Positions 48,050 through 55,436 of a DNA stretch of 64,000 nucleotides are shown in pieces (within the stretch, counting starts at the first letter, position 1; each line of letters begins with the position of its first letter). The stretch is from Planctomycetota bacterium. Its GTDB lineage: Bacteria > Planctomycetota > Phycisphaerae > Phycisphaerales > Phycisphaeraceae. The stretch covers positions 16,635 to 80,634 of the forward strand of contig JBCCST010000010.1 of assembly GCA_039199695.1 (NCBI GenBank), in the 5' to 3' direction. A program made the position numbers and the translations under genes. The notes below the pieces were generated by a model, which was not told the DNA's origin, ran no database searches, and saw nothing but the letters and a program-made list of their open reading frames with translations.

Positions 48050-49225
48050 ATGAGCGACATCCCCCTGAGCCAGCCTGATCTGACCGACGACGACATCGAC
48101 GCCGTGGTCGACACCCTCCGCAGCGGACGGCTGAGCATCGGCCCCAAGCTCGAGCAGTTCGAACGCGACGTGGCCCGCCGTTCGGATCGACGCGTCGGCA
48201 TCGGCGTCTCGTCGGGTACGGCCGGCCTGCACCTGGTCTTGCTCGCGCTGGGCGTAGGGCCGGGCGATGAGGTCATCACCACGCCGTTCAGTTTTATCGC
48301 GTCGGCCAACTGCATCCTGATGGTCGGGGCGACTCCCGTGTTTGTCGACATCTGCCCCAAGTCGTTGAACATGGACCCGGCCAAGGCCGAGGCGGCCGTG
48401 ACCGACAAGACCAAAGCCATCGTCGCCGTCGAAGTCTTCGGCAACACCACGCACATGGCCGCGCTCGAAGCGATAGCCCGCAAGTACGAGATACCCTTGG
48501 TGGAAGACTGCTGCGAAGGCCTGGGCGGCACCGCGGCCTGCGGCCGGGCGGTCGGCTCGTTCGGCCGGGCGGGCGTGTACGGCTTCTATCCCAACAAACA
48601 GATCACCACCGGCGAAGGCGGCATGATCGTCACCGACGACGACACCCTCGCCGACCGCTGCCGGAGCCTCCGCAACCAGGGCCGCGCCACCGCGGCCCAC
48701 ATGGGCACCGACAAAAACGCCGGGTCGTGGCTGGCCCACGAACGGTTGGGCTACAACTACCGGCTCTCGGAGATCAACGCGGCGTTGGGTATCGTGCAGA
48801 TGCAACGCCTCGACGCCATGCTCGAGGCCCGCCGCACGGTGGCCGGGCACTACATGCGTCGGCTGATGGACTGGGACGACTTGGTCCTGCCCACCGTCGA
48901 GCCCGCCGCCGAGGCGACCATGTCGTGGTTCGTCTTCGTGGTGCGGCTCACCGCGGACTACGGCCACGTCGAACGCGACCGCATCATCCAGGGTATGAAG
49001 CGTCACGAGATCGGCGCCTCGAACTACTTCCCCTGCATCCACCTTCAGCCGTTTTACCGCCAACAGTTCGGCTTCAAGAAAGGCGACTTCCCCATCGCCG
49101 AGTCGATCAGCGAACGCACGCTCGCCCTGCCGTTCTTCAACCGGCTGGAAGCGACGCAGGTCGAACTGGTCTGCCACACGCTGAAAGTCATGATTCAGCG
49201 GGAACAACTGCTCAAACGCGACTAA
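48050..49225 (+). CDS. DegT/DnrJ/EryC1/StrS family PLP-dependent aminotransferase
   Basis: SSGTAGLHL, GPGDEVIT, VEDCCE, FYPNKQITTGEGGM and GYNYRL. Confidence 0.92.
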   Translation: MSDIPLSQPDLTDDDIDAVVDTLRSGRLSIGPKLEQFERDVARRSDRRVGIGVSSGTAGLHLVLLALGVGPGDEVITTPFSFIASANCILMVGATPVFVDICPKSLNMDPAKAEAAVTDKTKAIVAVEVFGNTTHMAALEAIARKYEIPLVEDCCEGLGGTAACGRAVGSFGRAGVYGFYPNKQITTGEGGMIVTDDDTLADRCRSLRNQGRATAAHMGTDKNAGSWLAHERLGYNYRLSEINAALGIVQMQRLDAMLEARRTVAGHYMRRLMDWDDLVLPTVEPAAEATMSWFVFVVRLTADYGHVERDRIIQGMKRHEIGASNYFPCIHLQPFYRQQFGFKKGDFPIAESISERTLALPFFNRLEATQVELVCHTLKVMIQREQLLKRD

Positions 49226-49369
49226 ACCGGCGTCCAAATCAGTCAAAAACTCCCCCTTATCAACCCCGTAACCCCACAGCCGGTTATCCGCGGCCGAGGC
49301 TTTCGGCAAAGGCAGCGTTGACCTACAATTTAAAAACCTCTTTCACCCGTAAACCAAAGGCGGTTCCCC

Positions 49370-49639
49370 TTGGCCAAAGCTCACGTCGACCCCGAAGACC
49401 TCGTCAAGTTCGCCAAATCGCTCGGGCACTTCAACCGCACGATGCAGGAGATGACCGGCAGCCTCAAGGGACAGATGCGTCGGCTCGAAACCACCTGGCA
49501 AGACCAAGAGCAGGCCAAGTTCTCACAAGAGTTCTTCGACGCCCTGCGTTTCATCGACCGCTTCGTCGAATCCAACGAACAACACGCCCAGTTGTTGGTC
49601 AAAAAGGCGCGCCTGATCGAGGCCTACCTCGACGCGTGA
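49370..49639 (+). CDS. WXG100-family protein (WxD variant), EsxA/B-like
   Basis: 89-aa helical hairpin with central TTWQD, N-terminal VDPEDL..F and C-terminal IEAYLDA. TTG start. Confidence 0.8.
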   Translation: MAKAHVDPEDLVKFAKSLGHFNRTMQEMTGSLKGQMRRLETTWQDQEQAKFSQEFFDALRFIDRFVESNEQHAQLLVKKARLIEAYLDA

Positions 49640-49704
49640 AGCTCGAAACGATTTGACGTAGTAGTTCGTATTTTCAGCGGCCGATCGATTCACCAAGGAA
49701 GTAC

Positions 49705-50331
49705 ATGGCCAAAGGCGCCCGGGTTCAATCCGTTCAACAACTCGCCGACTTCCGGGCGTTCCTCGTGAAGTTCGCCGAGGGCGTGCGTCACGGCACGAGC
49801 ATCGCCGAAAGCGAAGTCCAAAGCACCGTCCGTTGGCTCAAAGACGAACACCCCCAACGTCTTCTGGGCGAGCGGCGCAAAGCCGAGCGTGCGCTGCAGG
49901 ACGCCACCGACGACCTCCGCCGTAAACGCCTCCAACCCACCGCCACCGGCGACCCGCCCTCGGTGGTCACCGAGCAGAAAAACCTCGCCAAGGCCAAAGC
50001 CAAGAAGCAGTGGCTCGACGACAAACTCACGGCCACCCAACGCTGGTCGCGTCAGTTCGACAAAGAAGCGACCCAGTTTCAAGCCGGACTCCAGGCGGCC
50101 CAAAGCCTGCCCGAAGCCGTGATCTCGCGGGCGCTGGCCCGACTCGAAGGGCACGTCATCGCCCTCGAAAAATACCTGGAAGCCCAGAACCCTCGGCCCA
50201 CCTTGTCTTCGCAACCATCCGCCGACTCGGGTGGGATCGCTCGCAGCGGCGACGTGGGATCCGAAGCCGAAGAGGAATCCGCCACCGCCGACCCCACTGA
50301 TGAAGACCCACAAGACAAGGAACAGCCATGA
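49705..50331 (+). CDS. Elongated WXG100-like helical protein
   Basis: About 160 aa of predicted helix plus an acidic tail. Shares N-terminal LxxFxxxLxxF and C-terminal ExYL[D/E]A with the upstream WXG100 protein. Confidence 0.6.
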   Translation: MAKGARVQSVQQLADFRAFLVKFAEGVRHGTSIAESEVQSTVRWLKDEHPQRLLGERRKAERALQDATDDLRRKRLQPTATGDPPSVVTEQKNLAKAKAKKQWLDDKLTATQRWSRQFDKEATQFQAGLQAAQSLPEAVISRALARLEGHVIALEKYLEAQNPRPTLSSQPSADSGGIARSGDVGSEAEEESATADPTDEDPQDKEQP

Positions 50332-50540
50332 GCCTTGGCGTCGGCGCTTCGACTTTGAACGATGCCCGCAAGGCGCTCAACGCCCGCTGGGACGAACTCC
50401 GCCGCCAGTGGGACGACGCCGCGGCGGCCAAGTTTGAGCAAGATTTTATCCAACCCATGGACCACGACCTCAAGCAAGCGATCGACGCGATGATCCACGC
50501 CCAGCAGGCCGTCCAACGGGCCCGACAGGAATGCACATGA
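50328..50540 (+). CDS. Small WXG100-like protein
   Basis: 70-aa helix-turn-helix with central RQWDD..A.KF. ATGA overlaps with both neighbours. Confidence 0.65.
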   Translation: MSLGVGASTLNDARKALNARWDELRRQWDDAAAAKFEQDFIQPMDHDLKQAIDAMIHAQQAVQRARQECT

Positions 50541-53500
50541 CGTTTAACGGCAGCGAAAACAACGAGAACCCCATCACCTCGGCCGACGCTTCGACGGCGT
50601 TGTCGTCCATCGGCCGACGCCAGCTCGCGGCCCTGGCCGACTTGATCGATCTGTCCAACACCAGCGACCGGGCCGAACGCCTCTTGCTGAGCGACGCCGA
50701 GCAACGCCAACACTTCATCACCCGGCGTTACGAACTCAACCACGACCGCATCACAACCCGGCACCGCACCCGCCGGCACCGCATCGAAAAACAGCACGCC
50801 AAGCAACGCGCCCGCTTCCAACAAGAATTCGATCAGAAGCAGGCCAAGCTCCAAGGCGACGCTCAAGCCCTGCGTAAGAAGATCGAACGCCAGGCCCAGG
50901 AATCAACCAGCAAAACCGCTTCGGAAGAGAGCCACGAAAAATGGGTCGCCGACAGCATGCTCGAAGGCCGGCTCAACGAACTCAAGGCCGAACTCGAACG
51001 CGACCGCGACCAACTCGAAACCATGCGGAACCACGCCGCCGGCTTGGACGAACAAGCGGGCGACACCCTGCGTCGCTACCGCTACCGTGACCTGTCGATG
51101 CCCGAGCACACGCCCTCGACCCCGCCGGCCGACGAAACCCCGGCCGACCCCGAAGCCGCGTTCAACGAGTTGATCGACGACTACCCGCAGCAAGACGCGC
51201 AACTCAAAGCAGCCCTCCAACAGCTCAAGAAACTTTTGCTGCCCGCCTTGTTTCTGAGTTTCCTACCGTATCTCTTTTGGTTCGTCTTAACGCTGGGCAT
51301 TACGGCGGGTTTGATCGTGCTGGGCAACGAACTGGCGTGGACCTGGTCCCCGATCATCACCGGAGCCGGGGCCTTCGTGGTCGGCGGCGGCCTGGTCTGG
51401 CTTGTCGGCAAAATCATATTCAACGCGGGCTCGAAAAAAGTCGCGCTCGCCTTGGGGCAGTATCACGCACAACGCGAAACCCACCTGAACTACCTAGACG
51501 AAGTCCGACACGCCGCGCAGATTAAACACGATGTGCGCGGCGATGCCGCCCGCCAGGAACGCGACGCGGCTCACGACAAAACCAAAGCCAAATATGCCCC
51601 GTATTTCGCCAAAATCGATCAACGCCGCGAACAGTCCGCCGCCGAGCTCGACGGTAAAGTCAAGGGCAAACTTGATCGTATCAACGAACACTTCCAACAA
51701 GAACGCGGCGCCTTCGACGCCGCATCGGCGGACGAACTGAAACAACTCGACGAGCGCTTCGACCGCCGGATCGACATCACAACCCGTCGCCGCGACCGCG
51801 ACCAAACCTCGCTCGACTCCGAACACGGCAGCAGCGCCGCCCGCCTCCAACAGAAATGGGAAGCCGGCCGAGACCGACTGCTCCACAGCCTCGAAGAGAT
51901 GCGTCGGCTTGAAGACACCTCCAATCGGCCGTGGGCCGACGCCGCGTGGGCCGACTGGGTCCCCCCGACCAGCCCCGCCCCGGCGGTCCGCTTCGGTTCG
52001 ATTACGCTCGACACCGACAACCTGCTCGACGAGCAGGCGGCGGGTGGACGTTTCGACCTGAACCTGCCCGCCTCGCTGTCCGTGCCCGCCCTGCTGTCCG
52101 GGCCGGACCAACGGTCCTTCTACCTCGGCACCCCGCCCGAGCAGCGCCCCGCTGCGCTCGCCATGATGCAATCCGTGATGCTCCGGCTGCTCACCACGAT
52201 GCCGCCGGGCCAGGTCAAGTTCACGCTGATCGACCCGATCGGCCTCGGCGAATCCTTCGGCGGTTTCATGCACCTGGCCGACCACGAAGAATCGCTGGTC
52301 AACGGCCGGGTCTGGTCCGAACCCGCCCACATCGACCGCCGGCTCACCGACCTGACCGATCACATGGGGCAGATGATCCAGAAGTATCTGCGCAACGATT
52401 ACGACTCCATTGATCAATACAACGAACAAGCCGGTGAGCTGGCCGAGCCCTACCGCTTCCTCGTCGCCGCCGACTACCCCCAAGGCTTCTCGACCGACGC
52501 CGCCGCCCGACTCAACAGCCTCGCGGCCAGCGGGGCCCGGTGCGGCGTGTTCGTGCTGGTCCTCCACGATCAACGCACCGCCCCACCCACCGGCGAGATC
52601 GACGACCTCAAACGCCACTGCACCGCTGCCTCGTTCAGCCCCGACGACGGCTGGCGTTGGCGTCACCCGATCACCGAGCGCTTCCCGTTTACTCCCGATT
52701 CACCGCCCGACGAAGACCTGGTCAGCCAGATCGTGGGCAAGGTCGGCCGAGCCGCCATCGAGGCCGGCCGGGTCCAGGTGCCCTTCTCGACCATCACCCC
52801 GAACGCCGGCAGCCCCGAGGTGTGGTCGCGCAGCGCTTCGGAAGACCTCGAAGTCGCTATCGGCCGAGCGGGCGCGACCCGGCTGCAATCCTTCCGCGTC
52901 GGCCGCGGCGTGGCGCAACACGCTTTGGTCGCCGGTAAAACCGGTTCGGGTAAGTCGTCGCTGCTGCACACGCTCATCACCAACCTCTGCTTGTGGTATC
53001 CGCCGGATCAGCTTGACCTGTACCTGATCGACTTCAAAAAGGGCGTCGAGTTCAAGCCCTACGTCAACCACCGGCCGCCGCACCTGCGGGCGATCGCGAT
53101 CGAGTCCGACCGCGAGTTCGGCCTGTCCATCCTCAAACGGCTCGACGCGATGCTCGACGAACGTGGCGAGAAGTTCCGCGAAGCAGGCGTGGCGAATCTC
53201 GCCGGCTACCACCAAGCCGTGCCCGATCAACCGATGCCGCGAGTGCTGCTGATCGTCGACGAGTTCCAAGAACTGTTCGGCCAAGACGACGCGATCTCGC
53301 AGAGTGCCACGCAACTGCTCGACCGCTTGGTGCGGCAGGGCCGGGCGTTCGGGATGCACGCCTTCCTCGGCTCGCAGTCGCTCAGCGGTGCCGCGGGACT
53401 ACCCCGTGGCACCATGGGGCAGATGGCCGTGCGCATCGCGCTGCAATGTTCGGAAAACGACAGTCAACTGATCCTCGGCGATGAGAACTCCGCCGCCCGC

Positions 53501-54577
53501 CTGCTCACCCGCCCCGGCGAAGCGATCTACAACGACCAGAACGACACGCTCGAAGCCAACAGCCTGTTCCAGGTCGCTTGGCTGCCCGACCACGAGCTGC
53601 GCGACAGCCTGCGCACGATCACGAACCTTGCGGCCGAGAGCGGGGTTGATCCGGGCGCCTGTCACATCTTCGAGGGTAACGCCCCGGCCGTGCTCGCCGA
53701 GAACCAGCCGCTCAACGCCATGCTGCAAAGCCCCGATTGGCCGGCGGTTCCCAGCGGGACCCACGCCCCCTCGGCCTACCTGGGCGACCCTATCGCGATC
53801 GACGCCCCCACCGCGATCACCTTCCCCAAGCTCAACGGCGCCAACGCCCTGGTCCTCGGGCAAAACGCCGACAACACGCTCGGCCTGCTGTGCGCCGGGC
53901 TCCTGTCGCTCGCCGCGGCCCACCGCCCTGACCGCGCCCGCTTTGTCGTCTTCAACGGTTCGACCGAGCCCGAGCACGACGAACAGCTCCGCCAAACCCT
54001 GGACACGCTACCGCACGGCGTCGCCCAGGTGCCGTTCCGCGATGTCGACTCGTCGCTCGCCGAGTTTCACGCCGAGCTGCAACGCCGCATCGAAGACGGT
54101 GCCCCGACCGACACCGCCGAGGCCCCGACCACGTTCATCGCGGTGTTCGGCCTCCAACGCTTCCGCCAATTCCGCAAGTCCGACGACGGCTTCTCGTTCT
54201 CGCTGGACGACGACGCCGGCGGCGCTTCGAAGCCCGACGAACAGCTGCTGGACCTGTTGCGTGACGGCCCGGTCGTGGGCATGCACCTGATCGTCGTCGC
54301 CGACCGCGCCGCCTCGATCGAACCGGTCTTCGACCGCCGAGCGTTGCGCGAGTTCGACAACCGCGTCATGTTCCAGATGTCCGCCACCGACTCGGCCCAG
54401 ATCATCGACAGCAGCGAAGCCAACGACCTCGGCCCCTACCGGGCCTTGCTCTACCGCGAAGACCGCGGGACGATCACGCGCTTCCGGCCGTATGGGATGC
54501 CTTCGGAGGATGACCTCGCCCGTTTCAAACACTCGCTTGCCCGATCAATCCGAGGAAATTCGACTTCCCGGAGTTGA
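50537..54577 (+). CDS. Membrane-anchored FtsK/SpoIIIE-family ATPase, EssC/EccC-like, with three P-loop-fold domains
   Basis: Coiled coil, two TMs, coiled coil, degenerate domain 1, intact domain 2 (AGKTGSGKS, YLIDFKKG, IVDEFQE, RQGRAFGMH..GSQ) and degenerate domain 3. Confidence 0.88.
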   Translation: MTFNGSENNENPITSADASTALSSIGRRQLAALADLIDLSNTSDRAERLLLSDAEQRQHFITRRYELNHDRITTRHRTRRHRIEKQHAKQRARFQQEFDQKQAKLQGDAQALRKKIERQAQESTSKTASEESHEKWVADSMLEGRLNELKAELERDRDQLETMRNHAAGLDEQAGDTLRRYRYRDLSMPEHTPSTPPADETPADPEAAFNELIDDYPQQDAQLKAALQQLKKLLLPALFLSFLPYLFWFVLTLGITAGLIVLGNELAWTWSPIITGAGAFVVGGGLVWLVGKIIFNAGSKKVALALGQYHAQRETHLNYLDEVRHAAQIKHDVRGDAARQERDAAHDKTKAKYAPYFAKIDQRREQSAAELDGKVKGKLDRINEHFQQERGAFDAASADELKQLDERFDRRIDITTRRRDRDQTSLDSEHGSSAARLQQKWEAGRDRLLHSLEEMRRLEDTSNRPWADAAWADWVPPTSPAPAVRFGSITLDTDNLLDEQAAGGRFDLNLPASLSVPALLSGPDQRSFYLGTPPEQRPAALAMMQSVMLRLLTTMPPGQVKFTLIDPIGLGESFGGFMHLADHEESLVNGRVWSEPAHIDRRLTDLTDHMGQMIQKYLRNDYDSIDQYNEQAGELAEPYRFLVAADYPQGFSTDAAARLNSLAASGARCGVFVLVLHDQRTAPPTGEIDDLKRHCTAASFSPDDGWRWRHPITERFPFTPDSPPDEDLVSQIVGKVGRAAIEAGRVQVPFSTITPNAGSPEVWSRSASEDLEVAIGRAGATRLQSFRVGRGVAQHALVAGKTGSGKSSLLHTLITNLCLWYPPDQLDLYLIDFKKGVEFKPYVNHRPPHLRAIAIESDREFGLSILKRLDAMLDERGEKFREAGVANLAGYHQAVPDQPMPRVLLIVDEFQELFGQDDAISQSATQLLDRLVRQGRAFGMHAFLGSQSLSGAAGLPRGTMGQMAVRIALQCSENDSQLILGDENSAARLLTRPGEAIYNDQNDTLEANSLFQVAWLPDHELRDSLRTITNLAAESGVDPGACHIFEGNAPAVLAENQPLNAMLQSPDWPAVPSGTHAPSAYLGDPIAIDAPTAITFPKLNGANALVLGQNADNTLGLLCAGLLSLAAAHRPDRARFVVFNGSTEPEHDEQLRQTLDTLPHGVAQVPFRDVDSSLAEFHAELQRRIEDGAPTDTAEAPTTFIAVFGLQRFRQFRKSDDGFSFSLDDDAGGASKPDEQLLDLLRDGPVVGMHLIVVADRAASIEPVFDRRALREFDNRVMFQMSATDSAQIIDSSEANDLGPYRALLYREDRGTITRFRPYGMPSEDDLARFKHSLARSIRGNSTSRS

Positions 54578-54611
54578 TCGCTTTAATCGACAGTAAATAG
54601 ATGAGTTACCC

Positions 54612-55436
54612 TTAACTCTCGTCAATATCAAATCTACGTAAACTCATAGTGCGTACGAGTGCGTCTTCTGTTCCGAACAAGGAATAGTGGTTGATATTGA
54701 AATCATCTAACTGACGTAACGCTGTTATTCGGTCTGATCGAGGCAGAGTTAGCTTGATCAACACATCTTGATGGGCAATTGGAGATGGCACAACATCATG
54801 ATGCGAACAAAACATATGCCTATTCCGCTCTGAATCCCAAGTGGTTGCTGTCGTATACCACGCTTTCTGATTGAAGTGTCTTGCATGCGTCGTCACGTAT
54901 GGCCCATGTGTATCAATCATGCTTTCTCCTCCACTTGCAGATTTATGTCCTTCAGGTGTTTCGATGAACGCATAAACAGACACATAGCTAGCGCTACCAG
55001 CAGACTCAAAAGCAAAATACGCTGCGATGTAAGGGGAAGTGGTCCAATCCAATAGTGGCGATGGAAAGCCATGATGCCTTAAGTGAACAAGATAGTCGTA
55101 ATGCGGAAGATAAACCCGCATAGAATCTTGCCTATTTTCTATTTCACGCAAAATCTCAGGATATGTTTTTAATCCCCACTGCTTACCGCTGACTGATTCG
55201 ATCTCGTTGACACAAGAATCTGCTCTCTGCAAATACTTTTGTACTGAATACTCCTCGGTTGAAGCACGCTCAAGCGTAGTAATTAGAGGCCAATCACTAT
55301 TAGCTTGACCACGAAAAAGTATCTCGTTATCGAGCTCCCTACCGGAAATACCGACAGTTCGCTTCCCGTATTTATTTCTAATGTCGGATATAGCAGTTGC
55401 ATAATCCGCCCATGAATTCAGCGTAATCGTTTCCAT
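54612..55436 (-). CDS. FRG domain-containing protein, low GC
   Basis: LFRGQANSDWPL..TLER and LRHHGFPSPLLDWTTSPYIAAYFA. Confidence 0.88.
   Translation of the reverse strand: METITLNSWADYATAISDIRNKYGKRTVGISGRELDNEILFRGQANSDWPLITTLERASTEEYSVQKYLQRADSCVNEIESVSGKQWGLKTYPEILREIENRQDSMRVYLPHYDYLVHLRHHGFPSPLLDWTTSPYIAAYFAFESAGSASYVSVYAFIETPEGHKSASGGESMIDTHGPYVTTHARHFNQKAWYTTATTWDSERNRHMFCSHHDVVPSPIAHQDVLIKLTLPRSDRITALRQLDDFNINHYSLFGTEDALVRTMSLRRFDIDES

Follow-up and report, generated by a model that had tools for sequence, protein, structure and literature searches.

A cassette of four genes at 49370-54577 of the window, a stretch of 64,000 nucleotides from a Planctomycetota genome (assembly GCA_039199695.1, contig JBCCST010000010.1, positions 16,635-80,634), is, judged from its sequence, a stand-alone, membrane-anchored copy of the "solo-WXG plus three-domain YueA/EssC-like ATPase" operon type, a minimal relative of type VII secretion systems (T7SSs). 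The initial annotation of this stretch had likewise seen a stripped-down type VII relative here, and the combination of WXG100-like proteins with an EccC/EssC-like ATPase bears that description out. The operon type is already in the literature, in comparative genomics work of 2011, 2012 and 2024, and the locus in the window is a further member of it. As to function, we suggest, with a probability of roughly 0.55, that the ATPase exports a complex of the WXG100-like proteins and a long helical hairpin protein across the inner membrane. The four genes are:

49370-49639, plus strand: orf1, 89 residues from a TTG start, a WXG100-like helical hairpin with the motif W43-Q-D45
49705-50331, plus strand: orf2, 208 residues, a long two-helix hairpin followed by an acidic tail
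50328-50540, plus strand: orf3, 70 residues, a short WXG100-like hairpin with the motif W28-D-D30 (pattern W..W-D-D)
50537-54577, plus strand: the ATPase gene, 1346 residues, an EccC/EssC-like FtsK/SpoIIIE ATPase

A check of the open reading frames (ORFs) confirmed that the genes are co-directional and that the last three are joined by ATGA overlaps, as initially annotated; the overlaps lie at 50328-50331 (orf2/orf3) and 50537-50540 (orf3/ATPase). The start codon of orf1 is TTG rather than ATG; read from it, the orf1 product starts with (M)AKAHVDP, in agreement with the family N-terminus MAKAxVDP. The ATPase length of 1346 residues, from the ATG at 50537, is that of an identical database entry (P0005); an alternative ATG at 50531 would yield 1348 residues, and all ATPase residue numbers given here refer to this 1348-residue form.

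The earlier claim of a membrane-bound FtsK/SpoIIIE ATPase was upheld by a match to PF01580 with 117 bits, and by sequence as well as fold the protein is nearest to EccC and EssC and far from FtsK. Among the NCBIfam models, EccCa scored 130, EccCb 85, EssC 83 and FtsK 24 bits, all far under the respective equivalog cut-offs. A sequence search of the PDB returned T. curvata EccC (E 9e-42), followed by EccC5 (5e-34), YukB (4e-26) and FtsK (4e-10). In Foldseek comparisons, all three ATPase domains aligned with EccC (4NH0; E 3e-29, about 986 columns), while FtsK aligned with one domain at about 1e-10. Membership in the FtsK/HerA superfamily, together with fold similarity, though weaker, to FtsK and the coupling protein TcpA, would also fit a DNA translocase or a conjugation-type pump (FtsK, SpoIIIE, TraB or TcpA-like) that works with small accessory proteins. 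We consider such a pump highly improbable, given a score of 24 bits with the NCBIfam FtsK model NF007615 against a cut-off of 1566, Foldseek E-values for EccC/EssC that are stronger by at least 19 orders of magnitude, and the lack of linked relaxase, integrase or other transfer genes. Moreover, a separate, ordinary FtsK is encoded elsewhere in the genome (contig C7; PF01580, 210 bits).

Along the ATPase, the following regions can be told apart:

50531-51229, plus strand: N-terminal cytoplasmic region, residues 1-233, coiled-coil-like, 33% charged, with no domain match
51242-51421, plus strand: membrane hairpin, residues 238-297, two hydrophobic helices and a loop of about 6 residues
51422-51925, plus strand: helical stalk, residues 298-465, about 165 residues long
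51983-52765, plus strand: first FtsK-like alpha/beta domain, residues 485-745, degenerate, with neither Walker A nor Walker B
52847-53560, plus strand: middle domain, residues 773-1010, by its motifs the sole catalytically competent one
53567-54538, plus strand: third FtsK-like alpha/beta domain, residues 1013-1336, degenerate, with GQNADNTLG at the P-loop position

The middle domain aligns with D1 of EccC. A motif scan placed Walker A (GKTGSGKS) at residues 802-809 (nucleotides 52934-52957) and Walker B (LLIVDE) at residues 906-911; both motifs are invariant in 31 homologs, and 108 of 111 homologs contain exactly one Walker A. The first domain gave a weak PF01580 match (E 5.6e-5) and is strongly conserved in the family; it adopts an alpha/beta fold in the structure model and has no GxxxxGK[ST]. 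The third domain is likewise alpha/beta in the model and devoid of Walker motifs, with weak hidden Markov model similarity to the helix just after the P-loop of degenerate EccC domains. The stretch of residues 965-1011 (53423-53563), which includes RPGEAIYN, ranks among the most conserved of the protein, yet has the lowest AlphaFold confidence (predicted local distance difference test [pLDDT] <50). Possibly it serves as a pore loop or inter-subunit element and becomes ordered only in the oligomer.

The membrane hairpin is marked by Kyte-Doolittle peaks at about residues 250 and 287, both of which fall in helices of the model, and it is kept in all 111 full-length homologs. In the AlphaFold2 model, the second membrane helix runs without a break into the stalk, the two making up a single helix of about 190 residues. 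This membrane helix and the first P-loop-like domain are separated by a median of 165 residues, and by 165-169 in most of the 111 homologs; the length of the N-terminal region, on the other side of the hairpin, varies from 192 to 287 residues. Pairing of the N-terminal coil with the stalk found no support, as the two lengths show no convincing covariation (Pearson 0.10, Spearman 0.22).

The small proteins had initially been annotated as WXG100 proteins, which is correct for orf1 by the Pfam threshold (32.1 bits, over the 27.3-bit cut-off) but not for orf3, which remained under it (20.5 bits, E 6e-4; TIGR03930, E 3e-6). Nevertheless, the orf3 family is homologous to the orf1 family at the profile level (hhalign E 2.6e-5, probability 75%). 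Homologs of orf1 are annotated by NCBI as "WXG100 family type VII secretion target". The best PDB match of orf3 was S. aureus EsxA (E 8e-4), while the orf1 family profile matched H. pylori HP0062 (3FX7) over its full length (E 9e-13), followed by B. anthracis EsxB and then S. aureus and S. agalactiae EsxA. A Trp-x-Gly turn was not found in either family: orf1 has W-Q-D and orf3 W-D-D, and Gly never occupies the third position in the homologs of either. Eleven residues of orf1 are invariant in 44 homologs (P8, F14, L39, W43, D45, E47, F51, F55, L76, K79 and Y86), and the family shares the motif TW(Q/R)DQEQxKF and a conserved C-terminal tail, RKAxxIEEYLxQ(R). Across 44 homologs of orf3, W28 and D30 are invariant and the penultimate residue, C69 (50534-50536), is nearly so (40 of 44), as part of a C-terminal motif R-[DE]-C-x. 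This Cys has no counterpart among known WXG100 features.

The relationship to HP0062, a protein likened to ESAT-6 in the literature of 2009-2012, extends to the turn and to the neighboring motor. The alignment with orf1 (structures 3FX7 and 2GTS) runs end to end and includes the W-R-D turn of HP0062, and an FtsK/SpoIIIE-like ATPase encoded nearby in H. pylori matches the first and middle domains of the ATPase in the window (E 3e-42). The H. pylori locus differs in that it has no homologs of orf2 or orf3 and a shorter ATPase of about 830 residues. In the H. pylori locus that we compared (L113; CP122955.1, 214236-230496), HP0062 is followed by a 490-residue protein, a gene for a WHH nuclease-toxin domain, a SUKH immunity gene and the FtsK-like ATPase. 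The ATPase gene of this H. pylori sequence is split by frameshifts into three frames (259, 106 and 500 residues) and has no gene call.

The combination of WHH toxin, SUKH immunity protein and related ATPase next to a full-length homolog of orf1 raises the idea that the planctomycete cassette is a dedicated exporter of polymorphic toxins, in which the WXG100-like proteins would chaperone or target a toxin whose gene lies elsewhere. We give this idea little credence. In 80 loci, no toxin/immunity pair was found in or beside the planctomycete cassette. Genome-wide, the Pfam WXG100 model matched just the two cassette genes, and a search of all six-frame ORFs with custom profiles of orf1, orf2 and orf3 turned up no additional protein containing these domains, so that no further cargo of this kind is evident.

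The orf2 product had been described as an elongated paralog of the small proteins. Its elongated shape was confirmed: in an AlphaFold2 model based on 57 homologs (mean pLDDT 86, >93 within the hairpin), residues 8-76 and 88-161 form one two-helix hairpin, and the last 47 residues (162-208) form a disordered acidic tail. Paralogy was not retained, the profile comparison being weak both with orf1 (hhalign E 0.0066, probability 6%, confined to the N-terminal 50 residues) and with orf3 (E 0.087). What orf1 and orf2 do share is a pair of short terminal motifs, A-x-V-x-[PS]-x-[ED]-x-L-x-x-F-x-x-x-L-x-x-F at the N-terminus and [IL]-E-x-Y at the close of the last helix, which hold across 44 orf1 and 57 orf2 homologs. 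The Tyr of the second motif is invariant in both families and, as Y157 in A-L-E-x-Y, is the sole invariant residue of the orf2 family. The C-terminal tails rank among the best-conserved parts of both orf1 and orf2.

Beyond the hairpin, orf2 homologs vary in their C-terminus and hence in length (about 165 to 377 residues), with the hairpin itself constant. Fifteen of the 57 homologs, among them those of loci L033, L035, L059, L052, L044 and L074, are 327-377 residues long, and their C-terminal ~100 residues contain an Imm33-like domain that scores up to 54 bits with PF24719 and has a conserved GDSGW motif. The fusion of an immunity-type domain to a T7-like helical hairpin was unexpected. The orf2 sequence itself had no match in Pfam (E <= 1; the LXG domain PF04740 included), NCBIfam or the PDB, and a Foldseek search with the model returned generic coiled-coil hairpins, none of them significant (best E 0.07). 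LapA3/LapA4 (8GMH) appeared at ranks 36-41 with an E-value of about 0.6.

Weak, non-significant structural neighbors of orf2 include the helical hairpins of F-BAR proteins and Vipp1. Together with the length of the orf2 hairpin (about 100 Å, as inferred from its ~70-residue helices) and the about 400 residues of coiled coil in the ATPase, they lend some appeal to an alternative raised in the initial annotation, namely ATP-driven assembly of a helical polymer for membrane remodeling, in which orf2 hairpins capped by orf1 and orf3 would be polymerized by the ATPase at the membrane. Such an activity is hardly probable. None of the fold matches reached significance, the closest relatives of the ATPase are secretion motors, and 88% of the phylum, genomes of the window's own family and order among them, lack the cassette, so that it does not serve a core function in cell biology.

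The distribution of the cassette supports a functional unit of exactly these four genes. Thousands of relatives of the ATPase occur in metagenomes, and the nearest named one is from Algisphaera agarilytica (89% identity). A locus scan of one genome per species, with RPGEAIYN as a search pattern, yielded at least 591 loci, the best 80 of which were used to compare neighborhoods; these come from Phycisphaerae, Planctomycetia and Brocadiia and from two bins labeled Verrucomicrobiota, and relatives of Singulisphaera and Gemmata are among the carriers. Of the approximately 66 loci with enough upstream DNA, about 58 have the genes in the order orf1-orf2-orf3-ATPase. This arrangement is far beyond chance, and the gene order is conserved across the Planctomycetota-Verrucomicrobiota-Chlamydiota (PVC) bacteria, a point that the initial annotation had proposed to check. 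All-against-all clustering of the 80 loci revealed no further conserved neighbors, only the four genes and their shadow ORFs.

In an even sample of 301 Planctomycetota genomes, the ATPase was matched in 35, orf1 in 36, orf3 in 34 and the orf2 core in 34 (~12%). The four genes occur in almost the same genomes, in one copy each, and are inherited as a set; several genomes of the window's own family and order lack the whole set. Exceptions to the co-occurrence were one fragmented assembly and one genus with only a short ATPase and orf1. The genomes of this genus (G008, G176; locus L032) measure 9.3-9.5 Mb, and their ATPases comprise about 960-1008 residues, with no detectable orf2 or orf3. In one family (f8) the genes are dispersed and all kept as single copies; in one of its genomes (G043; loci L016, L114), the ATPase gene lies at 5.92 Mb, orf1 at 2.50 Mb and orf2 with orf3 at 4.30 Mb. 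Retention of all four genes even when they are unlinked is strong evidence that they work together. In this dispersed family, a gene for a DksA/TraR-type zinc finger precedes the ATPase gene and an unrelated sulfatase gene follows orf1. In Verrucomicrobiota, the phylum of locus L111, an orf1-type gene was present in 10 of 301 genomes (3%).

The initial annotation had regarded the cassette as the strongest candidate for an undescribed system in the window, a view that we could not maintain. Zhang et al. 2012 (PMC3482391, Table 1 footnote 6) list planctomycetes and verrucomicrobia among the lineages with solo WXG proteins and a YueA-like ATPase in which activity is confined to the middle domain, and refer to such operons as "mobile versions of T7SS". 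The locus in the window shares with these operons the three tandem FtsK-like domains with an active middle one, the linked solo WXG100-like proteins and the patchy, apparently mobile distribution; it shows no difference in kind and is a member. Bell et al. 2024 (PMC11090510) described this operon type in association with Type III-A CoCoNuT / TerY-P loci and argued that the WXG100 genes imply secretion for this type of ATPase; in the relevant passage, that paper credits the stand-alone mobile version to Anantharaman et al. 2012. Earlier still, Sutcliffe 2011, as cited in a passage of a 2023 review (PMC10765036), pointed to pairs of WXG100 and FtsK/SpoIIIE proteins in Gram-negative bacteria, which are described there as not functionally confirmed.

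In the CoCoNuT-linked operon (PMC11090510), the EssC homolog begins with a coiled coil of >200 residues and has activity in its central domain only. It is accompanied by two WXG100 proteins, one of them without the motif, and by a coiled-coil protein that also carries a D-ExK nuclease-like domain. The cassette resembles it in the N-terminal coil, the three domains with an active central one, the two WXG100-like proteins (one atypical) and the coiled-coil protein. It differs in that its ATPase has a membrane hairpin, whereas the CoCoNuT-linked ATPases are reported to have no membrane helices, and in that orf2 ends in an acidic tail (an Imm33-like domain in other genomes) rather than in a D-ExK nuclease-like domain. 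Among the flanking genes scanned with Pfam (39.4-59.5 kb), no McrBC/CoCoNuT, von Willebrand factor A (vWA) or TerY-P genes were found. Relative to the papers considered here, our analysis adds the fixed set of four genes, their strict co-occurrence even when unlinked, the constant 165-residue stalk, the common tail motifs and the optional Imm33-like domain, as well as the full-length homology of orf1 to HP0062. These details are experimental handles and leave the category unchanged.

The chief alternative to export, suggested among other things by the link to CoCoNuT loci, is a non-secretory conflict or defense module. Here the ATPase, with its helical partners, would work intracellularly at the membrane as a sensor-effector or abortive-infection-type system, the small hairpins being regulators or adaptors and not substrates. 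Such a module would be in keeping with the same operon type lying inside defense loci with ATPases that lack membrane helices, with the patchy distribution (12% of Planctomycetota, 3% of Verrucomicrobiota) and variable neighborhoods of genes already termed mobile in 2012, and with the Imm33-like domain of the long orf2 forms, which belongs to a family known from polymorphic-toxin immunity loci. Furthermore, the gene immediately downstream, on the other strand, is an FRG-domain candidate defense gene of PADLOC (PDC-S15, E 5e-35). We nonetheless regard a defense role as rather unlikely. The cassette in the window has no nuclease, toxin or other effector domain, and the FRG gene is not a conserved neighbor. 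The ATPase tree clusters by taxonomy, if imperfectly (23 changes versus a shuffled mean of 41), which suggests largely vertical descent and is not typical of a defense-island gene. None of 111 homologs has lost the membrane hairpin or the fixed-length stalk, which points to a function at the membrane. In PADLOC, the small proteins had no match, and the ATPase showed only generic FtsK-domain similarity to SspH and mad8.

Compared to canonical T7SSs (ESX or T7SSa of Actinomycetota; Ess/Yuk or T7SSb and the variants c-j of Bacillota), the cassette shares an EccC/EssC-type membrane ATPase with P-loop domains in tandem and adjacent WXG100 hairpins. The topology of EssC, with a cytoplasmic N-terminal domain, a membrane hairpin and then the ATPase domains, is matched by the ATPase in the window, and orf2 with its two small partners recalls LXG-Lap1-Lap2 and PE/PPE, in shape and number of parts only. 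Canonical motors differ in having two or three nucleotide-binding ATPase domains (D1 plus D2/D3) in place of one, and an FHA domain or a short N-terminus in place of a coiled coil; the 165-residue stalk is a further difference. Their WXG100 partners have WxG where the cassette proteins have WxD, and the host of the cassette is a diderm. The initial annotation had noted no other T7SS component and no outer-membrane channel gene nearby; indeed, the neighboring genes are unrelated, and EccB (PF05108), YukC/EssB (PF10140) and YukD (PF08817) had no match in the whole 3.65-Mb genome (93% complete), with control genomes positive. No other T7SS core component was found among the neighbors of the cassette, a statement that for EccE, EssA, EsaA and mycosin is limited to the neighborhood, as these profiles were not run genome-wide.

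Based on these comparisons, we suggest how export by the cassette might proceed. The orf1 and orf3 products would pair with the orf2 hairpin to give a rod-shaped helical bundle, comparable to an EsxA/EsxB dimer or to an LXG-Lap1-Lap2 pre-secretion complex. The conserved tail motifs (..IEEYL in orf1, ..ALExY in orf2) would then be read by the ATPase; the Tyr-containing C-terminal tails are the likeliest recognition signals, by analogy to the complex recorded in PDB entry 4N1A, in which T. curvata EccC binds the C-terminal signal peptide of a substrate. The ATPase would assemble as a hexamer, with twelve membrane helices lining a channel; powered by ATP hydrolysis in its one active ring, it would move the bundle through the cytoplasmic membrane and into the periplasm. 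In ESX-5 structures, the membrane helices of EccC line the central pore, and a channel of twelve helices contributed by the ATPase alone is therefore conceivable. The variable C-terminus of orf2 would be the cargo, i.e. an acidic tail in this genome, an Imm33-like domain in others and a nuclease-like domain in the CoCoNuT-linked relatives. Such export would end in the periplasm, the outer-membrane step not being encoded.

Several observations weigh against export. The evidence for export is comparative only, and the CoCoNuT-linked relatives, with ATPases that lack membrane helices, suggest that the common core function may not be membrane translocation. Canonical systems need extra membrane proteins (EccB/D/E or EssA/EssB/EsaA) that were not found here, and no outer-membrane channel gene is linked to the cassette, though the cell has an outer membrane. 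In both orf1 and orf3, the Gly of WxG is replaced by Asp, and by its motifs the ATPase has one active domain only. Finally, custom profiles revealed no further cargo with these N-terminal domains in the genome, and the domain fused to orf2 homologs is classed as immunity-type, not as a toxin.

A bolder version of the export model would hold that the cassette is a self-sufficient single-motor translocase, in which the ATPase hexamer alone is the channel, orf1, orf3 and orf2 form the rod, and orf2 carries an exchangeable, non-toxin cargo; as this cargo would be an Imm33-like, immunity-type domain in many planctomycetes, the periplasm would receive a protective factor and not a toxin. We think this quite unlikely; were it to hold, the cassette would rank as the simplest type VII-like machine known and as the first one characterized in diderms of the lipopolysaccharide type.

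Work on type VII secretion has been almost confined to Gram-positive bacteria and mycobacteria, in which the process requires several membrane proteins. A cassette with one active ATPase ring and no accessory membrane proteins found, in a host with an outer membrane, could show the minimum required for moving folded helical bundles across a membrane. As relatives are wired into CoCoNuT defense loci, it may instead reveal a non-secretory use of the motor. Either outcome would inform the evolution of the ESX/Ess machines. The immediate value of the locus in the window is limited, since the cassette type is already in the literature.

The genes that flank the cassette are unrelated to it by Pfam: a DegT-type aminotransferase gene upstream and, downstream, an FRG-domain gene, ychF and gyrA. 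A scan of 48900-55000 found no promoter-like sites and terminator-like sites at chance level, and the orf1-orf2 spacer folds no better than shuffled sequence (z = 0.6). The FRG-domain protein (274 residues; 54612-55436, minus strand; PF08867, 75.6 bits) is encoded convergently to the ATPase gene, and its match to the PADLOC candidate defense family PDC-S15 has an E-value of 4.8e-35. The G+C content of this region is lower, 0.54-0.56 against about 0.63-0.67, and the stretch with the FRG gene may be a small acquired island.

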